From Candidatus Nomurabacteria bacterium (GTDB taxonomy: Bacteria > Patescibacteriota > Saccharimonadia > Saccharimonadales > VXPC01), in assembly GCA_020631905.1 (NCBI GenBank), contig JACKGQ010000001.1:229854-293853 (forward strand): DNA of 64,000 nucleotides, written 5' to 3'. Of the stretch, positions 2,436 through 63,639 are shown in pieces. The position numbers and the translations under genes were made by a program. The notes under the pieces are model-generated. The model searched no databases. It saw only the letters and a list, made by a program, of their open reading frames with translations, and had not been told where the DNA came from. Each line of letters opens with the position of its first letter. Within the stretch, counting starts at the first letter, position 1.

Positions 2436-3293
2436 TTAAAGAGTCAGACTAACACAGCGGATAAAACCACCGCCCTTAACTAGCTCGGTTACGTTCGGAC
2501 TAAGCACGTTGTAACCTCTATCACGTAACTCACTTGCCAGATTATGAGCGTGATTGCTCATAATTACGGTTTTTCCTGTACTAACTAGGTTGCACGCGAA
2601 ACCAGTTTTAGCTTCGTCGAAGCTAACCTCGATTTTATCAATATCTGTTAGTGCACGGATTTTGGCTTGGCTTTCGGGCAGCAAGGCATCCGGGCAATAC
2701 GCGATGGTGTGGTCGTCGATGACCGCAAGCGCAAGATCGAGATCGTAAAAGAAGCTATCTGGCCAGCCGGTGACCGGATTGATGACCGGTTGGTTGTCGG
2801 CACCTAGCTCTGGAATAGCTTGCACACCGATAACAGTTTTACCAAATTCGCGTCCGAGCATGTCGTGCACCTCGGGGCTGGTGCGGTACTGACTACCAAC
2901 AAAAATGTAGTTACCGCAGGGTAGGGCATCGCCCTGGCCACTAAAGTGGAGATCATCTGGCAATTTAACTGTCTCGAAACCAAGCTTTTGCAGCGTTTCG
3001 AGCGCATAGGGCTCTTCTGAGGCGCGTTGCTCTGGCAAATTACTCATGACTGCCTTATCGCCAATTACCAGCGCCCAGTTGGCCGTATAAACCCCGTCTT
3101 GGCTAGTAGGTGGTGCGGGTACTTGAATAACCTCTATACCAGCTTGCTCGAACAAACTTTTGATTTCGGCATGTTCGGCTTGGGCTCTGGCTAGATCGAC
3201 AGGCTTGGAGGCATCCATATGCGAGTTGATCGCGAATCCGTCGTTAAAGTAGTTGGCATCGGACATCAAGACGCGTTGGTTAATCAGACTCAT
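2436..3293 (-). CDS. guanidino-group-modifying enzyme superfamily protein (amidinotransferase/DDAH-like)
   Basis: 285 aa. C-terminal GGGFIRCVSLTL resembles the catalytic-Cys motif of the amidinotransferase/DDAH/arginine-deiminase fold. The size fits DDAH-like proteins rather than ArcA. Confidence 0.65.
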   Translation of the reverse strand: MSLINQRVLMSDANYFNDGFAINSHMDASKPVDLARAQAEHAEIKSLFEQAGIEVIQVPAPPTSQDGVYTANWALVIGDKAVMSNLPEQRASEEPYALETLQKLGFETVKLPDDLHFSGQGDALPCGNYIFVGSQYRTSPEVHDMLGREFGKTVIGVQAIPELGADNQPVINPVTGWPDSFFYDLDLALAVIDDHTIAYCPDALLPESQAKIRALTDIDKIEVSFDEAKTGFACNLVSTGKTVIMSNHAHNLASELRDRGYNVLSPNVTELVKGGGFIRCVSLTL

Positions 3294-3644
3294 AGAAAAG
3301 TAGTATATAGGCCGAAGGCCTTAGGGGCTAGTTTTAAGGAAAGCAAAGCATTAAATCTTTACTAATATTTTCAAGAAAGCAAAGCTTTCCATCTCACTCT
3401 TCTATTTTTGAAGAGACCAAAAACAGAAGCAAAAAAAGTCTTCCCAGCCACCCAAACATCCAGACTATCAAGCTTACAGCTCTTAAATCTGGTAACTTGC
3501 GGAACTTGCTGGCAAAGCCAGCTGCATACAGTCCTCGTTACCATACTTAAGAACTACAAGCTTGCTAATCTCGAGTTTGGGTGATGCTGGATATACAAGA
3601 CCGACAGACATCTAATATCCGAGTTCTAAGATCTATCTCATATC

Positions 3645-3680
3645 AATAAACGAGAAAACCCCGAGCCCCTGAGAGGGCTC
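3645..3680 (-). terminator. rho-independent terminator of G+C-rich ORF B1
   Basis: On the minus strand, stem GAGCCC-TCTCAG-GGGCTC is followed by GGGGTTTTCTCGTTT, directly after the stop at 3693. Confidence 0.55.
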
Positions 3681-3692
3681 TAGGGCTCTCGA

Positions 3693-4363: not shown

Positions 4364-4807
4364 CTACTCCGACATCGCGGGCGGCAGCCCCGCCTCGTGG
4401 GTGGCGTACCACTCACGGTGGGGATCGATCACCCCAGGCTCTTCAGAGTTGTTGCCATCTTCGATCAGGCCGAGACCCTTCGGCCAAGTCCTGATCAACC
4501 CCACGATGGTTGCGATGACCTCCTGCTCCTTCCGGGTTGAGGCGTCCGTGACGGGCGCATCGTGGGCTCCGAGCAGGATTTTCACCGTTGCGGTGTCCGG
4601 GTAGTAGACCCAGTCGTCAGCGCTGATGCCGGCGACTTGACCCATGTCGGCAATCAGCTGGTCGAGGCCGGCAGATGTCAACGGCTGGAAGAACTCGATC
4701 TCGCCGAAGTGACTGTTGGGATGGACTGCAATTCGCAACCAACCACAGCCGTCACCAAGCGTGGTGAGCTCCCTATCCGAACCCTCAGTGAAGGTTGAAG
4801 GTTTCAA
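4364..4807 (-). CDS. hypothetical protein, G+C-rich ORF (island B2)
   Basis: TTG start 5 nt after AGGAGA. 147 aa with balanced composition. Has its own promoter. No family recognised. Confidence 0.6.
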   Translation of the reverse strand: MKPSTFTEGSDRELTTLGDGCGWLRIAVHPNSHFGEIEFFQPLTSAGLDQLIADMGQVAGISADDWVYYPDTATVKILLGAHDAPVTDASTRKEQEVIATIVGLIRTWPKGLGLIEDGNNSEEPGVIDPHREWYATHEAGLPPAMSE

Positions 4808-7196: not shown

Positions 7197-7246
7197 GACA
7201 CACTCAGAATAAGAACTAATAGTAAGAAAGGAGAAGTCTTAGGGCT

Positions 7247-7281
7247 CTAAGATCTAAGCTCTAAGATCCAAGATCTAGAAT
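7247..7281 (+). repeat. heptanucleotide tandem array (CTAAGAT-like, 5 units) in the groEL 5' UTR
   Basis: Units CTAAGAT CTAAGCT CTAAGAT CCAAGAT CTAGAAT end at the groEL ATG. Preceded by GGCTCTA. Confidence 0.85.
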
Positions 7282-21671: not shown

Positions 21672-21993
21672 GAAAGAATTACACGACTTTTTACTCAGTT
21701 TCCCAAATACACGCCTCGACTATCCTTTTGGTGAGAGCGTGGCCGTCTACAAACTAAAGCATGGCGAAGAAGAAAAGATGTTTGCCCTGATGAGCGAAGG
21801 CAAAGAACCAATAAATTTGAGTCTAAAATGTGATCCAAATCTAGCCACACATCTGCGCGAAAAATACGAAAGTGTAATGCCCGGGTATCATTTAAACAAA
21901 AAACATTGGAATACGATCATACTGAGCGGGCAGTTGAGTCGGCAAGAGATCGAAGACTTAATCGCGCACAGCTATCAATTGGTTTCCGCCTAG
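21664..21993 (+). CDS. MmcQ/YjbR family DNA-binding protein
   Basis: 109 aa. YPFGESVAVYKL...MFALM...LSLKCDP...HLNKKHWNTI is typical of the YjbR family. Confidence 0.75.
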   Translation: MSRKELHDFLLSFPNTRLDYPFGESVAVYKLKHGEEEKMFALMSEGKEPINLSLKCDPNLATHLREKYESVMPGYHLNKKHWNTIILSGQLSRQEIEDLIAHSYQLVSA

Positions 21994-22589
21994 TTAGTGG
22001 CAGCTACATCGTAGCCTAGAAGAATTGATATGTTCGCGTAGGCTTGATTAATTGTCTCGCGCTGCGAAGTTGAATCAGTACCGGCGTATGCTTCCGCTAA
22101 TTGGCTGCGGTATTCAAGCAATTTGTTTGTGTACAGTTCATAGAACGAGGTGTCGTAGGTGTTGGCACTCGTAGCCGCATTGAGCTCGTCGCGTATGGTT
22201 TGATCGACAGCATTTTGAAGTTCTAGTTTTGTTACCTCACGACCGAGTTTTTCGAGTAAGCTGTTAATTGCAAAATGATCACTATTTAGCAGAACAACAG
22301 AACCTGCCAGAAGTTCCTGAGATTCTGAACTACGAATTTTGCTTTTTGCACCACTAGCTATATCTAGTAAGTCGGCTTGCTCGCTGTAGATCTCTGCCAG
22401 TCGATCTGCAGGGCCAGTATCTGGCTTGAGCACTATCCCGAATACTACCCAGGCTATAACTATCAGTAAGCAAATCCCACCAACCACCACCATCAACCGT
22501 TTGAGCATGCTTGGCTGGCCATTGGGGCTAAAACTACGTTTTGGTGACGTCTGAGTTTGGGGATTCAAAAAAAAGTCGTATTCACTCAT
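21990..22589 (-). CDS. membrane-anchored hypothetical protein
   Basis: 199 aa with a single N-terminal TM helix followed by a helical domain. Confidence 0.55.
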   Translation of the reverse strand: MSEYDFFLNPQTQTSPKRSFSPNGQPSMLKRLMVVVGGICLLIVIAWVVFGIVLKPDTGPADRLAEIYSEQADLLDIASGAKSKIRSSESQELLAGSVVLLNSDHFAINSLLEKLGREVTKLELQNAVDQTIRDELNAATSANTYDTSFYELYTNKLLEYRSQLAEAYAGTDSTSQRETINQAYANISILLGYDVAATN

Positions 22590-27891: not shown

Positions 27892-28700
27892 ATTGTCGTT
27901 CTGAGTCTACGAATAGCAACAAACTGGTGCGGATTACTGAGTTTCGTGCAGTCGATGCCAGCACGAGTTATCGGGAGTGTTTCGCGTACGACTCCTCCCA
28001 GATATTGGGGATTCTTACGGCTAGAATGAGCAAGTTCTATGGAGTTGTTTTCTGTGTTCACAATAACGGCGATATGTTGGCGTTTATCGGCACCATCTAG
28101 CATATGCACCAGATCTCCTATCTGGGCATCCTCAGGACTTACAGCGTAGCTAGAAAAATCCGATGTGAGTGTGCGAACGTTACATAAATTGGCTGGCTTT
28201 CGGTTGAAATTATCGACTACCCAACTAATTGGTACGTCGTTCGGAAGGTTTTTAATCTCTTCGGGCGTAAGCTTATGCTTTTCTTGCCATTCTTTATAGT
28301 TTAGGGCTCCGTTCATGACAGCTTCTTTAGGCATTGCAAGCATGTCTGACAGTCGTACTCCATGAACAACTTCAAGCACTTCAGACATAACATAATATAC
28401 AAACCCTGAGCACTCGATTGCCTTATAGTTCATCGACTTATCTGGGAGGCTTCCATCTATTAGCTTTTGCCGGATTTGCTGACCATTTAGATCTGGGTAA
28501 TTCGCCTTAATGTAGTCGACAGATCTCTTGATTTCATCTGGACTAGTTTTGCCAAGACCTCGGATTGCTTGCTTGGTCTCTATATATAGGTCATTGCGTA
28601 AATAGGGAGCCCAAAAAACTTCGCCGGTGTTTGTGGTGTAAGAGAATCTGGAAATTGCTCGATTCAGAGCATTTTGAATATCTTTCTGTTGACCCGTCAT
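27888..28700 (-). CDS. NlpC/P60-like cysteine peptidase
   Basis: ECSGFVYYV (catalytic Cys context), GDLVHM...HIAVIV and ELAHSS resemble the NlpC/P60 Cys-His-His arrangement. Confidence 0.55.
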   Translation of the reverse strand: MTGQQKDIQNALNRAISRFSYTTNTGEVFWAPYLRNDLYIETKQAIRGLGKTSPDEIKRSVDYIKANYPDLNGQQIRQKLIDGSLPDKSMNYKAIECSGFVYYVMSEVLEVVHGVRLSDMLAMPKEAVMNGALNYKEWQEKHKLTPEEIKNLPNDVPISWVVDNFNRKPANLCNVRTLTSDFSSYAVSPEDAQIGDLVHMLDGADKRQHIAVIVNTENNSIELAHSSRKNPQYLGGVVRETLPITRAGIDCTKLSNPHQFVAIRRLRTTI

Positions 28701-28721
28701 CAGGTATAATATCTTAACACA

Positions 28722-29642
28722 ATGATACCAATAGCAGATATCTACGAGGCCCGGAAACGGATTTCACGGGTAGCCAAACTTACACCTGTTCTTACTTCGA
28801 ACAGTATCAATCTAGAACTTGGACGTAAATTATTTTTTAAGTCAGAGCATCTGCAGACAACAGGAAGCTTTAAAATACGGGGGGCTTTAAACGCGGTCTT
28901 GCAAGCACCTGAAAATGCGCCAGGGATTATCGGTTTTTCCTCTGGTAATCACGCCCAGGGCTTGGCCTACGCAGCCAGCATATCGTCAAGGCCAGCAATT
29001 GTAATTATGCCTAGCGACTCCTCGAAGCTAAAGGTAGAAGCCACCAAACGATATGGCGCCAAGGTTGTTACTGAGGGGGTAACAGTCGAGAATCGTTACG
29101 AGATATTAAGCAAGATGATTGTCGAAACCGGGTATCATCCGATTCCACCTTTTGATGACTATCGAGTTATGGCAGGTCAGGGTACGATAATGCTTGAACT
29201 GCTCGAGCAAGTTTCGGATCTGGATGCAGTGCTTGTTCCGGTAGGTGGTGGTGGGCTGATTAGTGGCATAGCATCCGTAGTAAAGCAGTTAAAGCCATCG
29301 ATCGAAGTTATTGGTGTTGAGCCTGTTGGTGGCGACGATACCTACCAGAGCTTACAGAAAGGTGAAAGGGTTCAGCTAGATAAACCACCGACAACAATCT
29401 GTGACGGTATCCGGACGATCATACCTGGCGAAAAAACCTTTCCGATCATTCAAGAGACAGTCGATAGAATCATAGTTGTCCCTGATGAGGCAACAATCAG
29501 GGCTCAAGCGTTGATCATGCAGAGAATGAAACAAATAGTTGAACCTACGGCGGCGATCACCCTAGGTGCTGTGCTTGTCGACAAAGATTTGCCAAGTAAC
29601 GTCGGCTTAATCTTGACCGGCGGAAATTGGATGCCACAATGA
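28722..29642 (+). CDS. PLP-dependent threonine/serine dehydratase family protein (serine racemase-like fold type II)
   Basis: SFKIRGA PLP-lysine motif, GGGGLISG glycine loop. 306 aa with no regulatory ACT domain. Confidence 0.85.
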   Translation: MIPIADIYEARKRISRVAKLTPVLTSNSINLELGRKLFFKSEHLQTTGSFKIRGALNAVLQAPENAPGIIGFSSGNHAQGLAYAASISSRPAIVIMPSDSSKLKVEATKRYGAKVVTEGVTVENRYEILSKMIVETGYHPIPPFDDYRVMAGQGTIMLELLEQVSDLDAVLVPVGGGGLISGIASVVKQLKPSIEVIGVEPVGGDDTYQSLQKGERVQLDKPPTTICDGIRTIIPGEKTFPIIQETVDRIIVVPDEATIRAQALIMQRMKQIVEPTAAITLGAVLVDKDLPSNVGLILTGGNWMPQ

Positions 29643-30996: not shown

Positions 30997-33639
30997 ATGA
31001 GCAAGAGGTTAGTGATTATCGATGGCATGTCCGTCTTCTACCGGGGCTACTATGCCATGCCTAGCCTGAGCACCAAAGACGGCACACCGACAGGGGGTGT
31101 TTATGGTTTTACAAGCCTGGCACTCGAGATTATCAAGCAACTCGAACCAAATTATGTATGCGTAGCATGGGACAAGTCAAAAACAAGTACTCGCAAGCGC
31201 CTAGATCTATATCCGGAATACAAAGCTGGCCGCAAACCACCTCCACCAGATTTTTATGCTCAGATACCAATTTTAAAAGAATTGCTCGAAGCATTCAGTT
31301 GGCCGCTGTATGAATGCGATGATTATGAAGCCGACGATATCATTGCGACCCTTGCCAAGAAAGCCGAGGCCAAAGACATCCAAACAATTATTATCGGTTC
31401 GGATTTGGACTTGCTCCAAGCGGTGACCGCTAAGACACACATGTACGCGCTCAAGAAAGGCTTTAGTAACATTCAACAGTTCGACGAAGCCGAATTCGAG
31501 AATAAATATGGTATTAAAGTTGAGCAGTTTATTGATCTAAAAGCAATCATGGGAGATGGCAGCGACAATATCCCAGGTGTTTCCGGTATCGGCAAAAAAG
31601 GCGCTGCCGAGTTATTGCAACAGTTTGGCACGCTCGAGAATGTTTACGAAAATCTTGATCTTGTAAAAGAGTCGATGCGTAAAAAACTAGAAGCTAGTCG
31701 AGACATGGCTTTCTTGAGCAAAAAAATCGTCACCCTTATGCTCGACGCACCGGTCGATCTGGATTTAAAAGCTATGGATGTGAATGATGTCGATGCAGCT
31801 AGGGTGCGGGCAGATCTCCAAAAACTTGAATTTCATAGTCTGCTGCGTAGTTTGCCAAAGACGATGGTAGACGCAGCGGCTCCAATTTTGGCACCGCAAT
31901 CTAGCAGTAAGCTTACTTTACCCAAAGTGCACATACACAATCGTCTCGACAATTTTTCGGATATCGACACAAGCAAACCTGTGTTTACGCACGTTTTTTG
32001 TAAGGGTAGATTTGGTGATGACCCTCAGGCTGTGCTCCTAGCCAACGACAACAAATCTCTACATATCTACAAGTCCGTCGGCCCAGAACTCAGAACTCAG
32101 AACTCAGAACTCAGAATCTATGGTTATGCCACTAAGCATAGCTTACAGATGTTGATCAGGCATGGTTTTGAGCAAGTCGAAGTCGAGCACGATATTAAAG
32201 TCGGAGCATTTTTAATAAATCCTTTGATTCGTGAACAATCGTTGAGTGCAATCGCTCTGAGCGATGCAGGCTACGATATCGAGCTGGATGATCTAGATGT
32301 TCAGGAGTTTATTTCGAAAGCACCAGAAATGTGCGCGATTATCCATGCAGTTGTCGACAAGCAAAAAGATGTAATGCAGAAGACAGGCCGACTTAAAAAG
32401 CTCGCAGAGGATATCGAGTGGCCAGTAATACCAGTATTAGCGCGAATCGAGCTCGCTGGCATGAAACTCGACGCCGACTATTTACGTAAAATGGGCGAAG
32501 AGATGTCTGGCAAGATTAGCGATCTTGAGCAAACTATTTACGGCTACGCCGACGAACAGTTCAATATCAGCAGTCCAACTCAGCTTGCCGATATTCTATA
32601 CGACAAATTAGGTCTACCAACTCAAGGCGTAAAAAAAGGCAAAACAGGCTACAGCACGGCTGCCAGCGAGCTGTCTAAACTCCGTAACCTTCATCCAATT
32701 ATCGAATACATTAGCGAATATCGGGAGCTTACAAAGCTCAAGAGTACATATATAGATACCTTGCCAGAACACCAAGGTGCCGATGGCCGAGTACGTAGCG
32801 ATTTACGCCTGACTGTGGCGGCTACCGGACGCTTGAGCAGCAGTGAACCGAACCTCCAGAATATCCCTGTTCGTAGCGAAGTTGGCAAAAAAATTCGGAA
32901 TGCGTTTGTTGCCGAACCAGGTAACTTGCTTGTTAGTGCCGACTATAGCCAGTTCGAGCTGCGTCTAGCAGCCGTACTTGCCGGCGATAACGACATGGTC
33001 GAAGCTTTTAATAGTGACGAAGACATCCATACACTTACCGCAAGCCAGGTATTTGGCGTGGCACTAGAAGATGTGACGCGCGAGATGCGCTACGATGCCA
33101 AGACTGTTAACTTTGGTATTCTTTACGGCCAGGGTAGTCATGGTCTAGCCCAACAAACGGGTATGAGCTATGGGGAGGCCAAAGAGTTTATCGACAAATA
33201 TTTCGAAAAGCGGGCTGCTATACGCGAGTACATCAAGCACCTGCGCGAGCAAGCCAAAGAGCAGGGCTACGTCGAAACGATGTTTGGCAGACGTCGGCCA
33301 ACACCAGATGTTGCCAGCAGTAACTTTATCGTCCGCGAGGCAGCTTACCGCCAGGCAGTTAATATGCCAATTCAGGGGAGTGAAGCCGATTTAATGAAGA
33401 TGGCGATGATTAAACTCGAGAACGAGTTTAATCATAGTTCTGAGTTCATGGTTCTAAGTTCTAAGCAGAAACCACGGCAGATTATGCAGGTCCATGACTC
33501 GATCATCGTAGAATGTCGTGAGCAAGATGCCGAAAAGGTTAGCAAGTTAATGAAAGAAACTATGGAAAACATCTACCCAAGCCTCGAGATTAAACTCAAG
33601 GTAGATGTATCCGTAGGCACCAATTGGGGAGATCTTTAA
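30997..33639 (+). CDS. polA: DNA polymerase I
   Basis: 880 aa. 5' nuclease domain, central domain, and polymerase motifs DYSQFELRLAA, RYDAKTVNFGILYG and QVHDS. Confidence 0.97.
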   Translation: MSKRLVIIDGMSVFYRGYYAMPSLSTKDGTPTGGVYGFTSLALEIIKQLEPNYVCVAWDKSKTSTRKRLDLYPEYKAGRKPPPPDFYAQIPILKELLEAFSWPLYECDDYEADDIIATLAKKAEAKDIQTIIIGSDLDLLQAVTAKTHMYALKKGFSNIQQFDEAEFENKYGIKVEQFIDLKAIMGDGSDNIPGVSGIGKKGAAELLQQFGTLENVYENLDLVKESMRKKLEASRDMAFLSKKIVTLMLDAPVDLDLKAMDVNDVDAARVRADLQKLEFHSLLRSLPKTMVDAAAPILAPQSSSKLTLPKVHIHNRLDNFSDIDTSKPVFTHVFCKGRFGDDPQAVLLANDNKSLHIYKSVGPELRTQNSELRIYGYATKHSLQMLIRHGFEQVEVEHDIKVGAFLINPLIREQSLSAIALSDAGYDIELDDLDVQEFISKAPEMCAIIHAVVDKQKDVMQKTGRLKKLAEDIEWPVIPVLARIELAGMKLDADYLRKMGEEMSGKISDLEQTIYGYADEQFNISSPTQLADILYDKLGLPTQGVKKGKTGYSTAASELSKLRNLHPIIEYISEYRELTKLKSTYIDTLPEHQGADGRVRSDLRLTVAATGRLSSSEPNLQNIPVRSEVGKKIRNAFVAEPGNLLVSADYSQFELRLAAVLAGDNDMVEAFNSDEDIHTLTASQVFGVALEDVTREMRYDAKTVNFGILYGQGSHGLAQQTGMSYGEAKEFIDKYFEKRAAIREYIKHLREQAKEQGYVETMFGRRRPTPDVASSNFIVREAAYRQAVNMPIQGSEADLMKMAMIKLENEFNHSSEFMVLSSKQKPRQIMQVHDSIIVECREQDAEKVSKLMKETMENIYPSLEIKLKVDVSVGTNWGDL
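32084..32118 (+). repeat. heptanucleotide tandem array (CAGAACT x4 plus 1 degenerate) inside polA
   Basis: CAGAACT CAGAACT CAGAACT CAGAACT CAGAATC, translated as PELRTQNSELRI. Confidence 0.9.
33436..33463 (+). repeat. heptanucleotide tandem array (AGTTCTN-like, 4 units; reverse complement of the AGAACT core) inside polA
   Basis: AGTTCTG AGTTCAT GGTTCTA AGTTCTA, translated as SSEFMVLSS. Confidence 0.8.
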
Positions 33640-40004: not shown

Positions 40005-40049
40005 CTACAAGAACTATGAACAGAAGTCTCCGGACTATATACTAGCTGT

Positions 40050-40913
40050 ATGCCGGAGTTACCAGAAGTCGAGACGGTTGTTTTGGGTTTGCGCAGCCTT
40101 TTACCTGGACATAAGTTTGTGCGGGTCGAGTTTGACTGGTCAAAAAGTTTCCCGAATACGCAAGCCGATGTCGAGAAGTTTTTGTTTGGTAGCGATGTAA
40201 TCGATGTCCGACGTCGCGGTAAGGCAATTTTAATCGATCTTAGCAGTGATTATACATTGGTAATTCATCTCAAGATGACCGGTCAACTTGTATATCGTGG
40301 TGAGTCCGATTTCGGCGGCGGTCACCCAAGCGACAGCCTAGTCGACAAACTGCCCGACAAGTCGACTCGGGTTGAGTTTGAGTTCGAAAACGGTCATAAA
40401 TTATTCTTTAATGATCAGCGAAAGTTTGGCTGGGTCCGGCTGTTACCAACTCTCGAGGTTGGCGAAATAAATTTTATGAAAAATCTTGGCCCAGACGCGC
40501 TAACAGTCACTGACACAGAGTTTGTAAAAAGATTTAAATCTCGCCACAAAAGTATTAAAGCCTGTTTACTCGATCAGACTATCTTGGCGGGTTGCGGTAA
40601 TATCTATGCCGATGAGGCTTTGTGGGCTAGCCAAATACACCCAAAAACTACCGCCAGTAAACTGACAGACAAGCAGCTTGCCGAGCTGCATAGATGCCTC
40701 CAACAAGTCCTAAAACTCAGCATTAGCTTGGGTGGCAGTAGTAGCAAAAACTATGTTAACGCTCAAGGCGAACGCGGCAGTTATTTAACTTTTGCGAACG
40801 CTTACGGGCGTGATGGTTTGCCATGCAATCGTTGTGGGCAGGAGATGACTAAAATGGTGGTCGCTGGTCGAGGTACACACGTCTGCCAGGGCTGTCAGCG
40901 AGTCAAAAAATGA
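40050..40913 (+). CDS. mutM: formamidopyrimidine-DNA glycosylase
   Basis: N-terminal MPELPEVE, H2TH region and C-terminal zinc finger CNRCG...CQGC. Confidence 0.95.
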   Translation: MPELPEVETVVLGLRSLLPGHKFVRVEFDWSKSFPNTQADVEKFLFGSDVIDVRRRGKAILIDLSSDYTLVIHLKMTGQLVYRGESDFGGGHPSDSLVDKLPDKSTRVEFEFENGHKLFFNDQRKFGWVRLLPTLEVGEINFMKNLGPDALTVTDTEFVKRFKSRHKSIKACLLDQTILAGCGNIYADEALWASQIHPKTTASKLTDKQLAELHRCLQQVLKLSISLGGSSSKNYVNAQGERGSYLTFANAYGRDGLPCNRCGQEMTKMVVAGRGTHVCQGCQRVKK

Positions 40914-58473: not shown

Positions 58474-58848
58474 GTGGATACATACGAAGTTGCGGTTTTG
58501 TACCATCCCGATCTCGAGCTTGACCTCGACAAAGGTGCAACCAAAGTTAAACAAATAATTAGCGACGCCGGCGGCAAATTAGTTGCCGAAGATGTCTGGG
58601 GGAAGCGCAAGCTAGCTTACCGAATCGCCGGTAACGAGCACGCGGTTTATGCCTTTTACGAGGTGCAGATGCCTGGTACAGCGATTGCCAAGATAGAGGC
58701 TAGTCTGAATATCACCGACGAAGTGATCCGTTTTTTGATATCAAAGAACGACACCGAAGCAGTCGAAAAGGCCCGAATTTTTAAAGAAAAACGCAAGCGT
58801 GAAGAGTCTGACGACGAACAAAAAGCAGAAGATAACAACGACAACTAA
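58474..58848 (+). CDS. rpsF: 30S ribosomal protein S6 with acidic tail
   Basis: GTG start after AAGGAAGGAG. YEVAVLYHPDLE...WGKRKLAYRI. The track ORF extends further upstream (TTG 58369). Confidence 0.9.
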   Translation: MDTYEVAVLYHPDLELDLDKGATKVKQIISDAGGKLVAEDVWGKRKLAYRIAGNEHAVYAFYEVQMPGTAIAKIEASLNITDEVIRFLISKNDTEAVEKARIFKEKRKREESDDEQKAEDNNDN

Positions 58849-58974
58849 CTTTTAAGAATGGAAAGGAGGCTTCGCTAGCAGAGGGAAAAGAGCAGCCGGA
58901 AGTTTGGATTCATTCCAAACACCGCGCGCCGAGAAAAACCGTAGGTTTGTCTTGGATAGCGAAGCGAAAATAGT

Positions 58975-59436
58975 ATGGCGAGAAGTTTTAACCAGGTAAC
59001 ATTAATGGGCAACCTGACTCGGGATCCAGAGCTACGCTCAACCCCAGGCGGCCAAAGCGTTTGCAGCTTTAGTCTAGCGCTTAATCGCAGCTACAAAGAC
59101 AACAGTAGTGGTGAGTGGAAAGAAGCCACCGACTTTGTCGATGTTACTGCATGGGCTGGTCTCGCTGAGCGAGTGGCTCAGTATTGCCAAAAAGGTAAAC
59201 AAGTACTTGTGAGCGGTCGTTTACAGTCGAGCTCTTGGGAGCAAGACGGTGCTAAGCGTAGCAAGGTAGAGGTTGTAGCTAACGATGTAACCTTCTTGGG
59301 TGGCGGTGGCCAGTCTGAAGATGGTGGAGCGGGTGGTGGCGCTAGCCAGGCTCGATCTAGCAAGCCAACCGACGAAGATGTAGTCATCAACGACGTCCCC
59401 GACGGCGAGATCGACCTCAGCGAGATACCCTTTTAG
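58975..59436 (+). CDS. ssb: single-stranded DNA-binding protein
   Basis: OB-fold N-terminus (NQVTLMGNLTRDPELR), Gly-rich linker and acidic tip DLSEIPF. Confidence 0.95.
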   Translation: MARSFNQVTLMGNLTRDPELRSTPGGQSVCSFSLALNRSYKDNSSGEWKEATDFVDVTAWAGLAERVAQYCQKGKQVLVSGRLQSSSWEQDGAKRSKVEVVANDVTFLGGGGQSEDGGAGGGASQARSSKPTDEDVVINDVPDGEIDLSEIPF

Positions 59437-59472
59437 TAAGTAAAATCTAAACACGGTGGATTAAGGAAATAC

Positions 59473-59751
59473 ATGAGCGAACACGAGAATTTAATATGTG
59501 TCGAAGGCAAAAGGTGCTCGAACTGTCCATTTGTGGGTAATGTTGCCGTGAAAGCAGTTATCGTTGATCGTCGTGATGGTTCGTTAACAGTTGACTATGT
59601 CGACGGCACCGAACCGGCACCTGAAAGAGATCAAGCTGATTCTGCGAATGCTAAGGATGCAAAGATGCTGATTCGTTTTGGTGTATGCTCGAGCCATGGC
59701 TCATGGGACACTGAAAAATACAGCGAACTAAATGAAAATATGATGGGCTAA
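59473..59751 (+). CDS. hypothetical protein (92 aa) inserted between ssb and rpsR
   Basis: ATG ORF with a CxxC-containing N-terminus (CVEGKRCSNCPF). No family recognised. Confidence 0.45.
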   Translation: MSEHENLICVEGKRCSNCPFVGNVAVKAVIVDRRDGSLTVDYVDGTEPAPERDQADSANAKDAKMLIRFGVCSSHGSWDTEKYSELNENMMG

Positions 59752-59782
59752 ATAACTAGAATTAAATTAAGAAAGGAGATGA

Positions 59783-59824
59783 GGCTCTAGCTCTATGAAC
59801 TTAGAACTATGAACTCAGAACTAA
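59783..59824 (+). repeat. heptanucleotide tandem array (GAACTNA-like, 6 units) in the rpsR 5' UTR
   Basis: GGCTCTA GCTCTAT GAACTTA GAACTAT GAACTCA GAACTAA, ending 3 nt before ATG 59828. Confidence 0.85.
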
Positions 59825-59827
59825 AAC

Positions 59828-60040
59828 ATGAAAGATGCTAAGAAAATTAAAAGTGATCACACTGGGTCAATCTATTTCGACCACAAAGACGTCAAAGCGT
59901 TACAGCGCTTTACCGACCAGTTTGGTCAGATACACCCACGCAAAAAGACAGGGCTAACAGAGATGCAGCAGCGTCGATTAAGCCGTGCAGTTAAGCGGGC
60001 TAGGCACCTAGCACTATTACCATTCGTTTCACGAGGATAG
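59828..60040 (+). CDS. rpsR: 30S ribosomal protein S18
   Basis: 70 aa. RRLSRAVKRARHLALLPF. Confidence 0.92.
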   Translation: MKDAKKIKSDHTGSIYFDHKDVKALQRFTDQFGQIHPRKKTGLTEMQQRRLSRAVKRARHLALLPFVSRG

Positions 60041-61888: not shown

Positions 61889-61938
61889 AAGACTCATCTT
61901 GCTTTGTTCTCGTTACTTAAATCTTTATACTATTAAGC

Positions 61939-63639
61939 ATGAGCAAAAAGCAGGCGGTGGTAGCTTTTATACGGCGAGTTTATTGGTTTCGCATATTGCT
62001 CGTATTAACCGCGATCTGCATACTCGACATTCTCTTTCAGCTTGGTCTACCAACTAACACTACTAGCTCAAACGCTCGGCTCGGAGAAAACAATATTGTA
62101 TCGATGAAAGCCAGCGATATCGAACATATGCTCTCGGTTTACGAAGATAGTTCGTACATTTATATCAAGGTAGGCGATGAGCAGTATATTAAAAAGTTTA
62201 AGGACGTCGGTATTACAATCGATATCGACAAGGCCAAGACTCTTGCAAACTATGGCTTGTCGAAGAAGCTGATTCCGTTTAGCGCTCTGTATCGATTTAC
62301 AAATAGTTATCATGACTTGCCATTGATTTACAATTCCGAAACCGCCAGGCCCTTTATCGAAGAAATTGCCGCCTATGGTAATGTCGAACCCGAGCCGGCT
62401 CGCCTAATCGCCAATAATGGCCAAGTTGGAGTTGTGGCCGACGTACCTGGCACGAATGTCGATGTCGAAGATGCGCTACAGGCGCTTGGCCATGTAGAGT
62501 ACGTTGACCGAATCGAATTCTATGCCGATCAATACGCGGTCCGCAGTGAGTTAACCGAGGCAAAGGCTTCTGAGTTTGCCAATCAGGCCAACCAATTTAT
62601 TAAAACCCCACCCGTATTTGAGCTTGATGGTCAGGTGGTTAATGTTGCGCCCACCAATATGGCCGATTGGTTTAATATCGAACAAGTCAATAGCAAATAT
62701 CAGCTAGCCCTTAATCAAGACGCAGTTGGCGAGTATTTAGACCAAGTTGCTCATGAACTTTTTGTTCCGTCTGTTGGTACTAAGGTAACCTTACTGGATG
62801 GTCAGGAAACAACTCGAGTAAATGGAGTCGCAGGTAAGGTCTTAGATAAGCAGAAGGCTCTTGCCGATATCGAAGCGGCACTCAGTAAGGGTGATGTGGG
62901 TCAGTCGATTGATCTTCGGTTAACTGATGTCACGCCTGGAGTAACATACGAACGCACATATTCACGCACTATTAGTGGCCTAAAGGTATTTGTCGCCGAC
63001 ACTGCCGCCCGAGGAAATTTCTATGTAAGCTTAGTTGGCATAGACAATCCTAGCATGAAGGCTGAATACCGAGGTGGCACGAGCATAACTGCCGCTAGCA
63101 CCTATAAAGTCTACGTTGCATATTACATTATGCGCGAGATTGAGCAGGGTCGAGCCGAATGGTCGGACAAGCTTCCTAGTGGACGCCAAGTAGAATCGTG
63201 TATGGAAGATATGATAGTCGTCTCGAGCAATTCGTGTGGTATCGAACTGCGAGATTACTTTGGCATAAGCAAGATTAATAATCAGTTACGAGCAATTGGT
63301 TTACCCAAGGCTCAAGTTGGCCCAGCCCAAACATCTGCCGACGACTTGTCTAACTTCTTCTACAAGCTGACTACCCAGAATATTCTTAGTAGTACTAATC
63401 GAGATAAACTGATTGATATGCTTAAGCGCCAAATACACCGTTTGGCAATACCAGCTGGCGTAGCCCCAACGCCAGTGGCCGACAAAGGTGGTTTTTATGG
63501 CACCTATAATCATGACACCGGAATTGTGTACGCCACCAATGGTCGATATGCATTAACGATCATGAGTGCCGGAGGCTATAGCAAAGCTGACCTTGCCAAT
63601 CTTGCTAGAGATATCCATAATTTTGTAATCAAACTATGA
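61939..63639 (+). CDS. membrane-anchored serine hydrolase (class A beta-lactamase/DD-peptidase-like C-terminal domain)
   Basis: N-terminal TM helix. C-terminal SxxK (ASTYK), SxN (SSN) and KxG (KGG) triad. Confidence 0.6.
   Translation: MSKKQAVVAFIRRVYWFRILLVLTAICILDILFQLGLPTNTTSSNARLGENNIVSMKASDIEHMLSVYEDSSYIYIKVGDEQYIKKFKDVGITIDIDKAKTLANYGLSKKLIPFSALYRFTNSYHDLPLIYNSETARPFIEEIAAYGNVEPEPARLIANNGQVGVVADVPGTNVDVEDALQALGHVEYVDRIEFYADQYAVRSELTEAKASEFANQANQFIKTPPVFELDGQVVNVAPTNMADWFNIEQVNSKYQLALNQDAVGEYLDQVAHELFVPSVGTKVTLLDGQETTRVNGVAGKVLDKQKALADIEAALSKGDVGQSIDLRLTDVTPGVTYERTYSRTISGLKVFVADTAARGNFYVSLVGIDNPSMKAEYRGGTSITAASTYKVYVAYYIMREIEQGRAEWSDKLPSGRQVESCMEDMIVVSSNSCGIELRDYFGISKINNQLRAIGLPKAQVGPAQTSADDLSNFFYKLTTQNILSSTNRDKLIDMLKRQIHRLAIPAGVAPTPVADKGGFYGTYNHDTGIVYATNGRYALTIMSAGGYSKADLANLARDIHNFVIKL

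Follow-up and report, generated by a model that had tools for sequence, protein, structure and literature searches.

The closest described relatives of the element considered here are the direct repeats of the heptamer TAACTGA found in marine Beggiatoaceae and in some members of the Cyanobacteria and Bacteroidetes (MacGregor 2015, PMC4679880). These form arrays of two to six copies, mostly in forward orientation and directly upstream of start codons at the place of the Shine-Dalgarno (SD) sequence, including those of ribosomal-protein genes, with one dominant unit per genome and a patchy phylogenetic distribution. Rare reverse copies lie inside open reading frames (ORFs), where they fall in portions of the protein that are peripheral or not conserved, an RNA polymerase beta-prime-like protein being one of the cases; S1, Csp and CsrA were discussed as candidate binders of the repeats, whose role was left undecided there. 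Here we analysed a 64,000-nt stretch of the genome of a Saccharibacterium deposited as Candidatus Nomurabacteria bacterium (GenBank assembly GCA_020631905.1, contig JACKGQ010000001.1, positions 229,854 to 293,853 of the forward strand; hereafter the window), in which polA, the gene for DNA polymerase I, carries two in-frame arrays of a 7-nt unit. We consider it probable that both are intragenic members of an AACT-core heptanucleotide repeat that underwent a lineage-specific burst through slippage, and that they persist as passengers tolerated after a filter. A first-pass annotation of the window had presented the origin of these arrays as unexplained and, by implication, novel; the implied novelty is not supported, as the repeat class was already described, including its abutment to start codons and its reversed intragenic copies (PMC4679880).

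Like the TAACTGA repeats, those of the window have a 7-nt unit with an AACT core, forward start-proximal arrays without an intervening SD, and intragenic copies in non-conserved parts of the protein, here variable loops. The units found here (CAGAACT, TAGAACT, ATGAACT and AAGATCT) differ from TAACTGA, matching it at 5/7 positions at best in the GAACTNN register, which makes the repeat a relative rather than the same one. Also unlike the TAACTGA repeats, the leader arrays of the window retain an SD ~46–49 nt upstream of both ATGs, and the present host is a reduced-genome Saccharibacterium. CAGAACT is free of stop codons in all three sense frames; hence, in contrast to the TAACTGA repeats, a forward intragenic copy is possible at the first of the two polA sites (site 1).

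Two broader repeat classes are also comparable. As relayed in PMC4679880, the survey of Mrazek et al. (2007) treats long simple sequence repeats (LSSRs) as head-to-tail units of 5–11 nt, finds heptanucleotides to be the most abundant in prokaryotes and sporadic among lineages, proposes polymerase slippage as their source, and reports that intragenic units are mostly multiples of three. The arrays of the window resemble the heptanucleotide LSSRs, with 4.3–4.7 copies, beyond chance, and a period of 7 that is over-represented in the lineage; they depart from the norm, as far as it is relayed there, by placing a 7-nt unit in frame twice within one conserved enzyme gene. In the excerpts of a Nostoc study available to us (bioRxiv 10.1101/2022.06.06.494920), the recF and recO leaders carry contiguous heptamers of the short tandemly repeated repetitive (STRR) type that lie close to the start codons or overlap them, the SD being remote or non-canonical; their involvement in translation or transcription is suspected, though unproven. 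The present arrays are unlike these in unit sequence (TTTTGAA and others there) and in phylum, and those excerpts report no in-frame intragenic copies.

Tandem Repeats Finder (TRF) identified four related period-7 arrays in the window, which share the unit N-A-G-A-(A/T)-C-T (GAACTNN in another register). Their positions, with that of the host gene, are as follows.

30997–33639, plus strand: polA, DNA polymerase I, 880 aa; the ORF hosting both intragenic arrays
32084–32118, plus strand: polA site 1, CAGAACT x4 followed by CAGAATC; TRF 32084–32116, unit CAGAACT, 4.7 copies, 100% matches
33436–33463, minus strand: polA site 2; TRF 33436–33465, unit AGTTCTA, 4.3 copies, 73% matches
7246–7277, plus strand: groES–groEL spacer array; TRF unit TCTAAGA (AAGATCT type), 4.6 copies, 84% matches
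59793–59824, plus strand: rpsR leader array, ATGAACT TAGAACT ATGAACT CAGAACT; TRF period 7, 4.6 copies

At period 14, the rpsR leader array reaches 94% matches in TRF. A scan for at least three consecutive units, each with no more than one mismatch to N-A-G-A-W-C-T, returned exactly four loci in the window as compared with 0.0 in 30 first-order Markov simulations of it, a test that is somewhat circular because the consensus was taken from the same data. The sequences, coordinates and translations that the first-pass annotation gave for both polA arrays proved correct on checking against the sequence and TRF, and its proposal of one dispersed family common to polA and the groEL and rpsR leaders is borne out by the arrays at 7246–7277 and 59793–59824. 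Its two weaker traces, at 3621–3634 and 40011–40024, could not be upheld as family members, as they are not convincingly above chance (the simulations yield ~1.5 two-unit hits at no more than one mismatch); on the minus strand, 3622–3635 is an exact two-unit match, for which 0.13 are expected in simulations. An ATG occurs within 5 nt after each of the four arrays, a coincidence that is not significant because the ATG at site 1 stems from conserved Tyr-Gly codons.

Tandem repeats can be mis-assembled, and many of the arrays found in our genome scan (see below) lie at contig ends, so that an assembly or sequencing artefact deserves mention. The same four arrays, letter for letter, are present in at least five assemblies made independently from different samples (SRR12358675, SRR12358676, ERZ27309307, ERZ28654902 and GCA_020428525.1) and are therefore no assembly artefacts; they also lie inside long contigs and keep the reading frame. 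We give an artefact almost no credence.

In the polymerase that hosts the two intragenic arrays, motifs A, B and C are intact; it aligns with Taq Pol I at E = 6.5e-161, and Pfam assigns the N- and C-terminal 5'-3' exonuclease domains and DNA_pol_A to an identical database protein. The 7-nt periodicity is perfect over 33 nt and the residues differ from unit to unit, from which it follows that the repeat arose at the nucleotide level and not through codon repetition. The first-pass annotation was right on this point, each unit being read in a different frame and encoding different residues. One could still imagine that the peptides ELRTQNS-ELR and EFMVLSSKQKP were selected for PolA function and that the DNA periodicity is incidental, and it is true that both insertions are in frame and that all PolA catalytic motifs were kept. 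Selection on peptides that differ with each unit cannot, however, yield a 7-nt periodicity; non-coding leaders carry the same DNA unit, and the segments are missing from every orthologue and fall in low-conservation loops. We regard adaptive peptides as extremely improbable.

Site 2 (aa 814–823) encodes SSEFMVLSS (aa 814–822), and its antisense strand reads TAGAACT TAGAACC ATGAACT CAGAACT; the AGTTCT present at both of its edges belongs to the repeat itself. The array belongs to a clean insertion of 33 nt (11 aa) at ~33442–33474, just before motif C (QVHDS), that is missing from 22 of the 22 aligned Saccharibacteria orthologues, including those of 80% and 68% identity, for which the DNA was compared. 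Taq Pol I likewise shows a 10-aa alignment gap at this position. The loop is evidently permissive, since some other Saccharibacteria carry insertions of 20–45 aa in it, just upstream of site 2. In an AlphaFold2 model of PolA with a mean predicted local distance difference test (pLDDT) score of 85.2, site 2 forms a short helix and loop (pLDDT 77–85, a local dip in confidence like that at site 1) between helix 777–813 and the strand that runs into motif C. By inspection, stop codons interrupt the reversed array in two frames, leaving open only the one in which polA is read.

Site 1 encodes PELRTQNSELRI (aa 363–374) in an indel-rich block of a degenerate 3'-5' exonuclease-like domain. In the AlphaFold2 model it occupies a loop between strands 354–358 and 372–376, where the block has a pLDDT of 72 versus 94–95 for its flanks; its RNA is less structured than shuffled sequences (z = +1.45). 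A codon alignment with the closest orthologue (locus L001) reveals a net gain of one residue (+3 nt), with ~7 codons of a length-variable loop replaced. The last six codons, AAC TCA GAA CTC AGA ATC (N-S-E-L-R-I), are homologous to N-D-R-L-R-I in the orthologue and, together with the near-zero net length change, indicate that the array apparently grew from a local seed and overwrote the ~7 codons upstream. The two sites had been proposed to be lineage-specific in-frame insertions in surface or linker regions. The first part of that proposal applies to site 2, with its +33 nt missing from 22/22 orthologues, and not to site 1, a loop replacement with a net gain of 1 aa; as to the second, the model places both sites in predicted loops, and site 1 outside the linker (~aa 290–305), within the exonuclease-like domain.

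The relatives allow some of these gains to be placed in time. The groES–groEL spacer is 83 nt long in the window versus 12 nt (TAA-AGGAGGACTATA-ATG) in a relative with 88% GroEL identity (locus L219); it is 8 nt long in a relative with 83% identity (L221), and most of 79 spacers from other Saccharibacteria loci are short, with the SD 5–10 nt from the ATG. No array of at least three units occurs in ~70 kb of the relatives' DNA. Taken together, the absence of arrays and the short spacers mean that the testable gains, at polA site 2 and in the groEL leader, are recent and lineage-specific, these two being the loci that the comparison covers.

In the explanation that we favour, slipped-strand mispairing would lengthen and shorten arrays by 7 nt at a time, a process of which site 1 with its 4.7 perfect copies would be the clearest case; a new array may start from an AGAACT-like hexamer already present at the locus, or may be a copy of an existing array. 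Assuming that polA is needed, it would keep only arrays that pass three filters; what the gene displays is the end state of such a process, and the process itself is presumed. First, the net change in length, which is +3 nt at site 1 and +33 nt at site 2, would have to be divisible by three. Second, the frame used would have to be free of stops, and third, the array would have to fall in a structurally permissive, length-variable loop. Seen through these filters on frame, stops and loop position, the polA copies are most likely tolerated passengers and not adaptive features of the protein.

Site 1 is a latent frameshift hotspot. As noted in the first-pass annotation, changes in unit number threaten the frame, which only changes of three units preserve. 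This raises the question of whether site 1 is a contingency switch that toggles PolA by frameshift or yields a mutator-like subpopulation. As in the contingency loci of Haemophilus and Neisseria (tetra- and pentanucleotides) and of the 5' untranslated region of Moraxella uspA2 (AGAT), the unit is not a multiple of three, and the arrays lie within an ORF (twice in polA) or between an SD and an ATG (twice); 4.7 perfect copies of a non-triplet unit in an ORF are what known contingency loci would lead one to expect. Unlike those loci, the arrays show no length polymorphism in any assembly, and the 90% protein cluster of PolA consists of a single sequence, present on two contigs. The tracts are also short, five copies of a 7-mer being a short tract for high-rate switching, and the genes are housekeeping ones, here a polymerase, rather than surface or restriction-modification genes. 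Finally, the array is missing from relatives, so the trait is not conserved. A contingency switch is thus very unlikely.

Both leader arrays run in the sense orientation and end immediately before a start codon, 2 nt before the groEL ATG at 7280 and 3 nt before the ATG at 59828, whose ORF encodes S18. The strong SD-like sequence AAGAAAGGAGA lies upstream of both ATGs.

7228–7233, plus strand: groEL SD, AAGGAG, 46 nt upstream of the ATG
59773–59778, plus strand: rpsR SD, AAGGAG, 49 nt upstream of the ATG

Between −18 and −4 of the groEL and rpsR ATGs there is no GGAG, GAGG or AGGA. The two leaders share flanking sequence beyond the heptads (TAAGAAAGGAGA ... GGCTCTA), with GGCTCTA at the 5' edge of each array (7237–7248 and 59783–59792). 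A sigma-70 consensus scan revealed no promoter-like site in either leader, and Rfam returned nothing at the gathering threshold in the whole window, the groEL leader included, and nothing at E ≤ 1 in 58800–59900, which holds the ssb and rpsR leaders.

Several other interpretations of the leaders were rejected. A hairpin bridging the SD and the ATG was discarded, as the folds are no stabler than those of shuffled sequences (z = −0.3 and −0.65). By inspection, an N-terminal extension of GroEL is precluded by an in-frame TAA 18 nt upstream of the ATG, and an upstream ORF by the lack of a start codon at a usable distance after the orphan SD; in the rpsR array, short ATG-initiated frames are present without an SD at usable spacing. 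Our best guess is that the leader arrays serve as an unstructured region for SD-independent ribosome loading or standby, or as the site of an RNA-binding factor. An SD is present in 31 of 61 crudely called window genes, for which the caller was free to choose among the first six candidate starts. With about half of the genes lacking an SD, and several of them looking leaderless, SD-independent initiation is plausible in this organism.

The repeat extends well beyond the window. In a species-representative genome collection, GAACTNN x4 occurs in at least 120 genome stretches from many phyla, which among the matches listed (the scope of all scan results below) include Acidobacteriota, Planctomycetota, Verrucomicrobiota, Bacteroidota, Patescibacteria and others. 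Intergenic arrays that end no more than 10 nt before a start codon are oriented forward in 12 cases versus reverse in 1, and the N-termini encoded downstream match the start of a Pfam domain in 9 of 10 tested, including S13, L17, the PHP domain of DnaE, and NifU. The heptad family normally lies outside genes, just upstream of start codons, and the polA copies are strays. Period 7 is also the commonest in 80 Saccharibacteria loci plus the window (42 arrays versus 19 of period 6 and 8 of period 8), and about three quarters of the period-7 arrays in the 80 loci fall outside any ORF of at least 70 aa. In 120 scan loci, period 7 outnumbers period 6 by 274 to 31 arrays, these loci having been chosen for a period-7 array. 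The same 120 loci also hold ~120 heptad arrays with other, unrelated units, and because these share the scan loci, the GAACT core is perhaps one slice of a general heptad phenomenon. Unit sequences vary between genomes, and many Saccharibacteria have no array at all.

Some further features of these genomes were observed in passing. Heptad-rich Saccharibacteria (L134, L145, L211, L212 and L178/L179) carry up to 6–7 arrays per 12 kb, most other lineages carrying none; their units, which are not those of the window, are AGTCGCC, CTCTGCC, CTATAAC, CAATTTA and TAAATGT, mostly intergenic and upstream of an SD. In several Acidobacteriota (for example L015, L026 and L033), inverted GAACTNN pairs flank 20–100 nt and would form very long hairpins. 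Along their length, the GAACTNN arrays drift into GAAAACT, GATAACT, CAGTACT and GGACTCC, and many lie at contig ends. Fourteen viral or proviral contigs of IMG/VR (L224–L237) contain AGAACTN x4.

Slippage is not the only conceivable source of the window arrays. It is possible, if rather unlikely, that they spread by templated copying, for example by gene conversion, by template switching while DNA is replicated or repaired, or as a small mobile module that is not autonomous. Site 2 would then be an inverted copy of the rpsR type, and site 1 a conversion patch that overwrote the loop. The antisense strand of site 2 is identical to the rpsR leader array at 26 of 28 positions, the order of the variant units included, and by a rough estimate ~0.05 of independent arrays of this family would be expected to share that order, which hints at copying without proving it. 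Templated spread would also suit the replacement of sequence at site 1 at almost no change in length, the flanking motifs common to both leaders, and the emergence of all arrays in a single lineage over a short evolutionary span. On the other hand, signs of a mobile element are missing: the flanks of the four arrays contain neither terminal inverted repeats nor a target-site duplication distinct from the repeat, and no transposase or reverse transcriptase is linked to them. The groEL array also has a different unit variant (AAGATCT). Site 1, moreover, is perfect and homogeneous, as is typical of slippage in situ, and the homology of its last 18 nt with the codons of the orthologue implies that a local seed existed.

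The slippage explanation that we prefer faces difficulties of its own, which we set out together. No copy-number variants of the arrays are found among the available assemblies, all at least 99.8% identical, so that ongoing slippage is presumed rather than observed. At site 1, simple expansion does not account for the near-zero gain in length unless a deletion also occurred or the ancestral loop was shorter. One core is common to four of the window's five period-7 arrays, which, along with the 26/28 inverted copy, generic slippage does not explain; a sequence-specific process or selection is implied. That two of the four arrays lie inside one 2.6-kb gene is mildly unexpected (chance ~5%). Lastly, the array census covers ~75 kb of the 770-kb genome. 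The 10.8 kb of this that lies beyond the window yielded no further arrays, and the density is ~4 per 75 kb covered in this Saccharibacterium.

A more ambitious reading takes (G/T)AACTNN arrays to be a cross-phylum, orientation-specific leader module that replaces the SD at the start codon by way of a conserved RNA-binding factor or rRNA contact and spreads within a genome by a sequence-specific copy-paste process, with the polA copies as collateral of that activity. We think this doubtful. If it were true, the insertion of 11 aa beside the active site of PolA, or the frameshift-prone site 1, could feed back on slippage and repair and thereby contribute to the burst of arrays in this lineage.

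Other elements of the window lie outside the family or touch it only through its motifs. The sole other period-7 array of about three or more copies, CCACCAA x3.3 at 22477–22498, bears no sequence relation to the AGAACT family and overlaps a minus-strand ORF (21990–22589); TRF also lists a TGAAGGT repeat of 2.1 copies at 4789–4803. At 3670–3689, AGGGCTCT x2 adjoins a terminator-like hairpin (GAGCCCCTGAGAGGGCTC), and the GGCTCTA motif is present there too. Many genes in the window have no SD and carry a TATACT or TATAAT box ~7–12 nt before the ATG (for example at 40030–40052, 3293–3315 on the minus strand, 61920–61941 and 28700–28724), which suggests that leaderless mRNAs are frequent in this Saccharibacterium.

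The ssb leader contains a different kind of element. There, a structured segment of ~100 nt (58866–58974; fold z = −2.7) separates the ssb ATG from an SD (AAGGAGG at 58863). The stem that closes this segment, CUUCGCUA/UAGCGAAG, draws the SD near the start codon, and the segment differs from the heptad arrays. Homologues were found by nhmmer in two other Saccharibacteria (E = 1e-10 and 4e-6): one at 3176–3301 of locus L204, again between an SD and an ATG, in this case that of groEL, and one at 637–736 on the minus strand of locus L180, in a third Saccharibacterium, directly upstream of a sequence that looks tRNA-like by eye. The segment may represent an RNA element, recurrent or mobile, that has not yet been described.

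In conclusion, the start-codon-abutting heptamer class now extends to Saccharibacteria and the candidate phyla radiation, and the scan also finds it in Acidobacteriota, Planctomycetota, Verrucomicrobiota, Bacteroidota and others, so that it is far more widespread than first reported. The lineage studied here offers a dated natural experiment: since the split from the relative with 88% GroEL identity, an array has been inserted between the groEL SD and ATG, and two have entered polA. The rpsR array likewise lies between SD and ATG, displacing the SD from the start codon. Should the leader arrays sustain translation where no SD is close by, they would represent a compact and portable initiation element; if site 1 slips, an enzyme of replication and repair would carry a built-in frameshift hazard. 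For polA itself, the arrays chiefly illustrate how insertions of simple repeats are sieved by selection on frame, stop codons and position in a loop.

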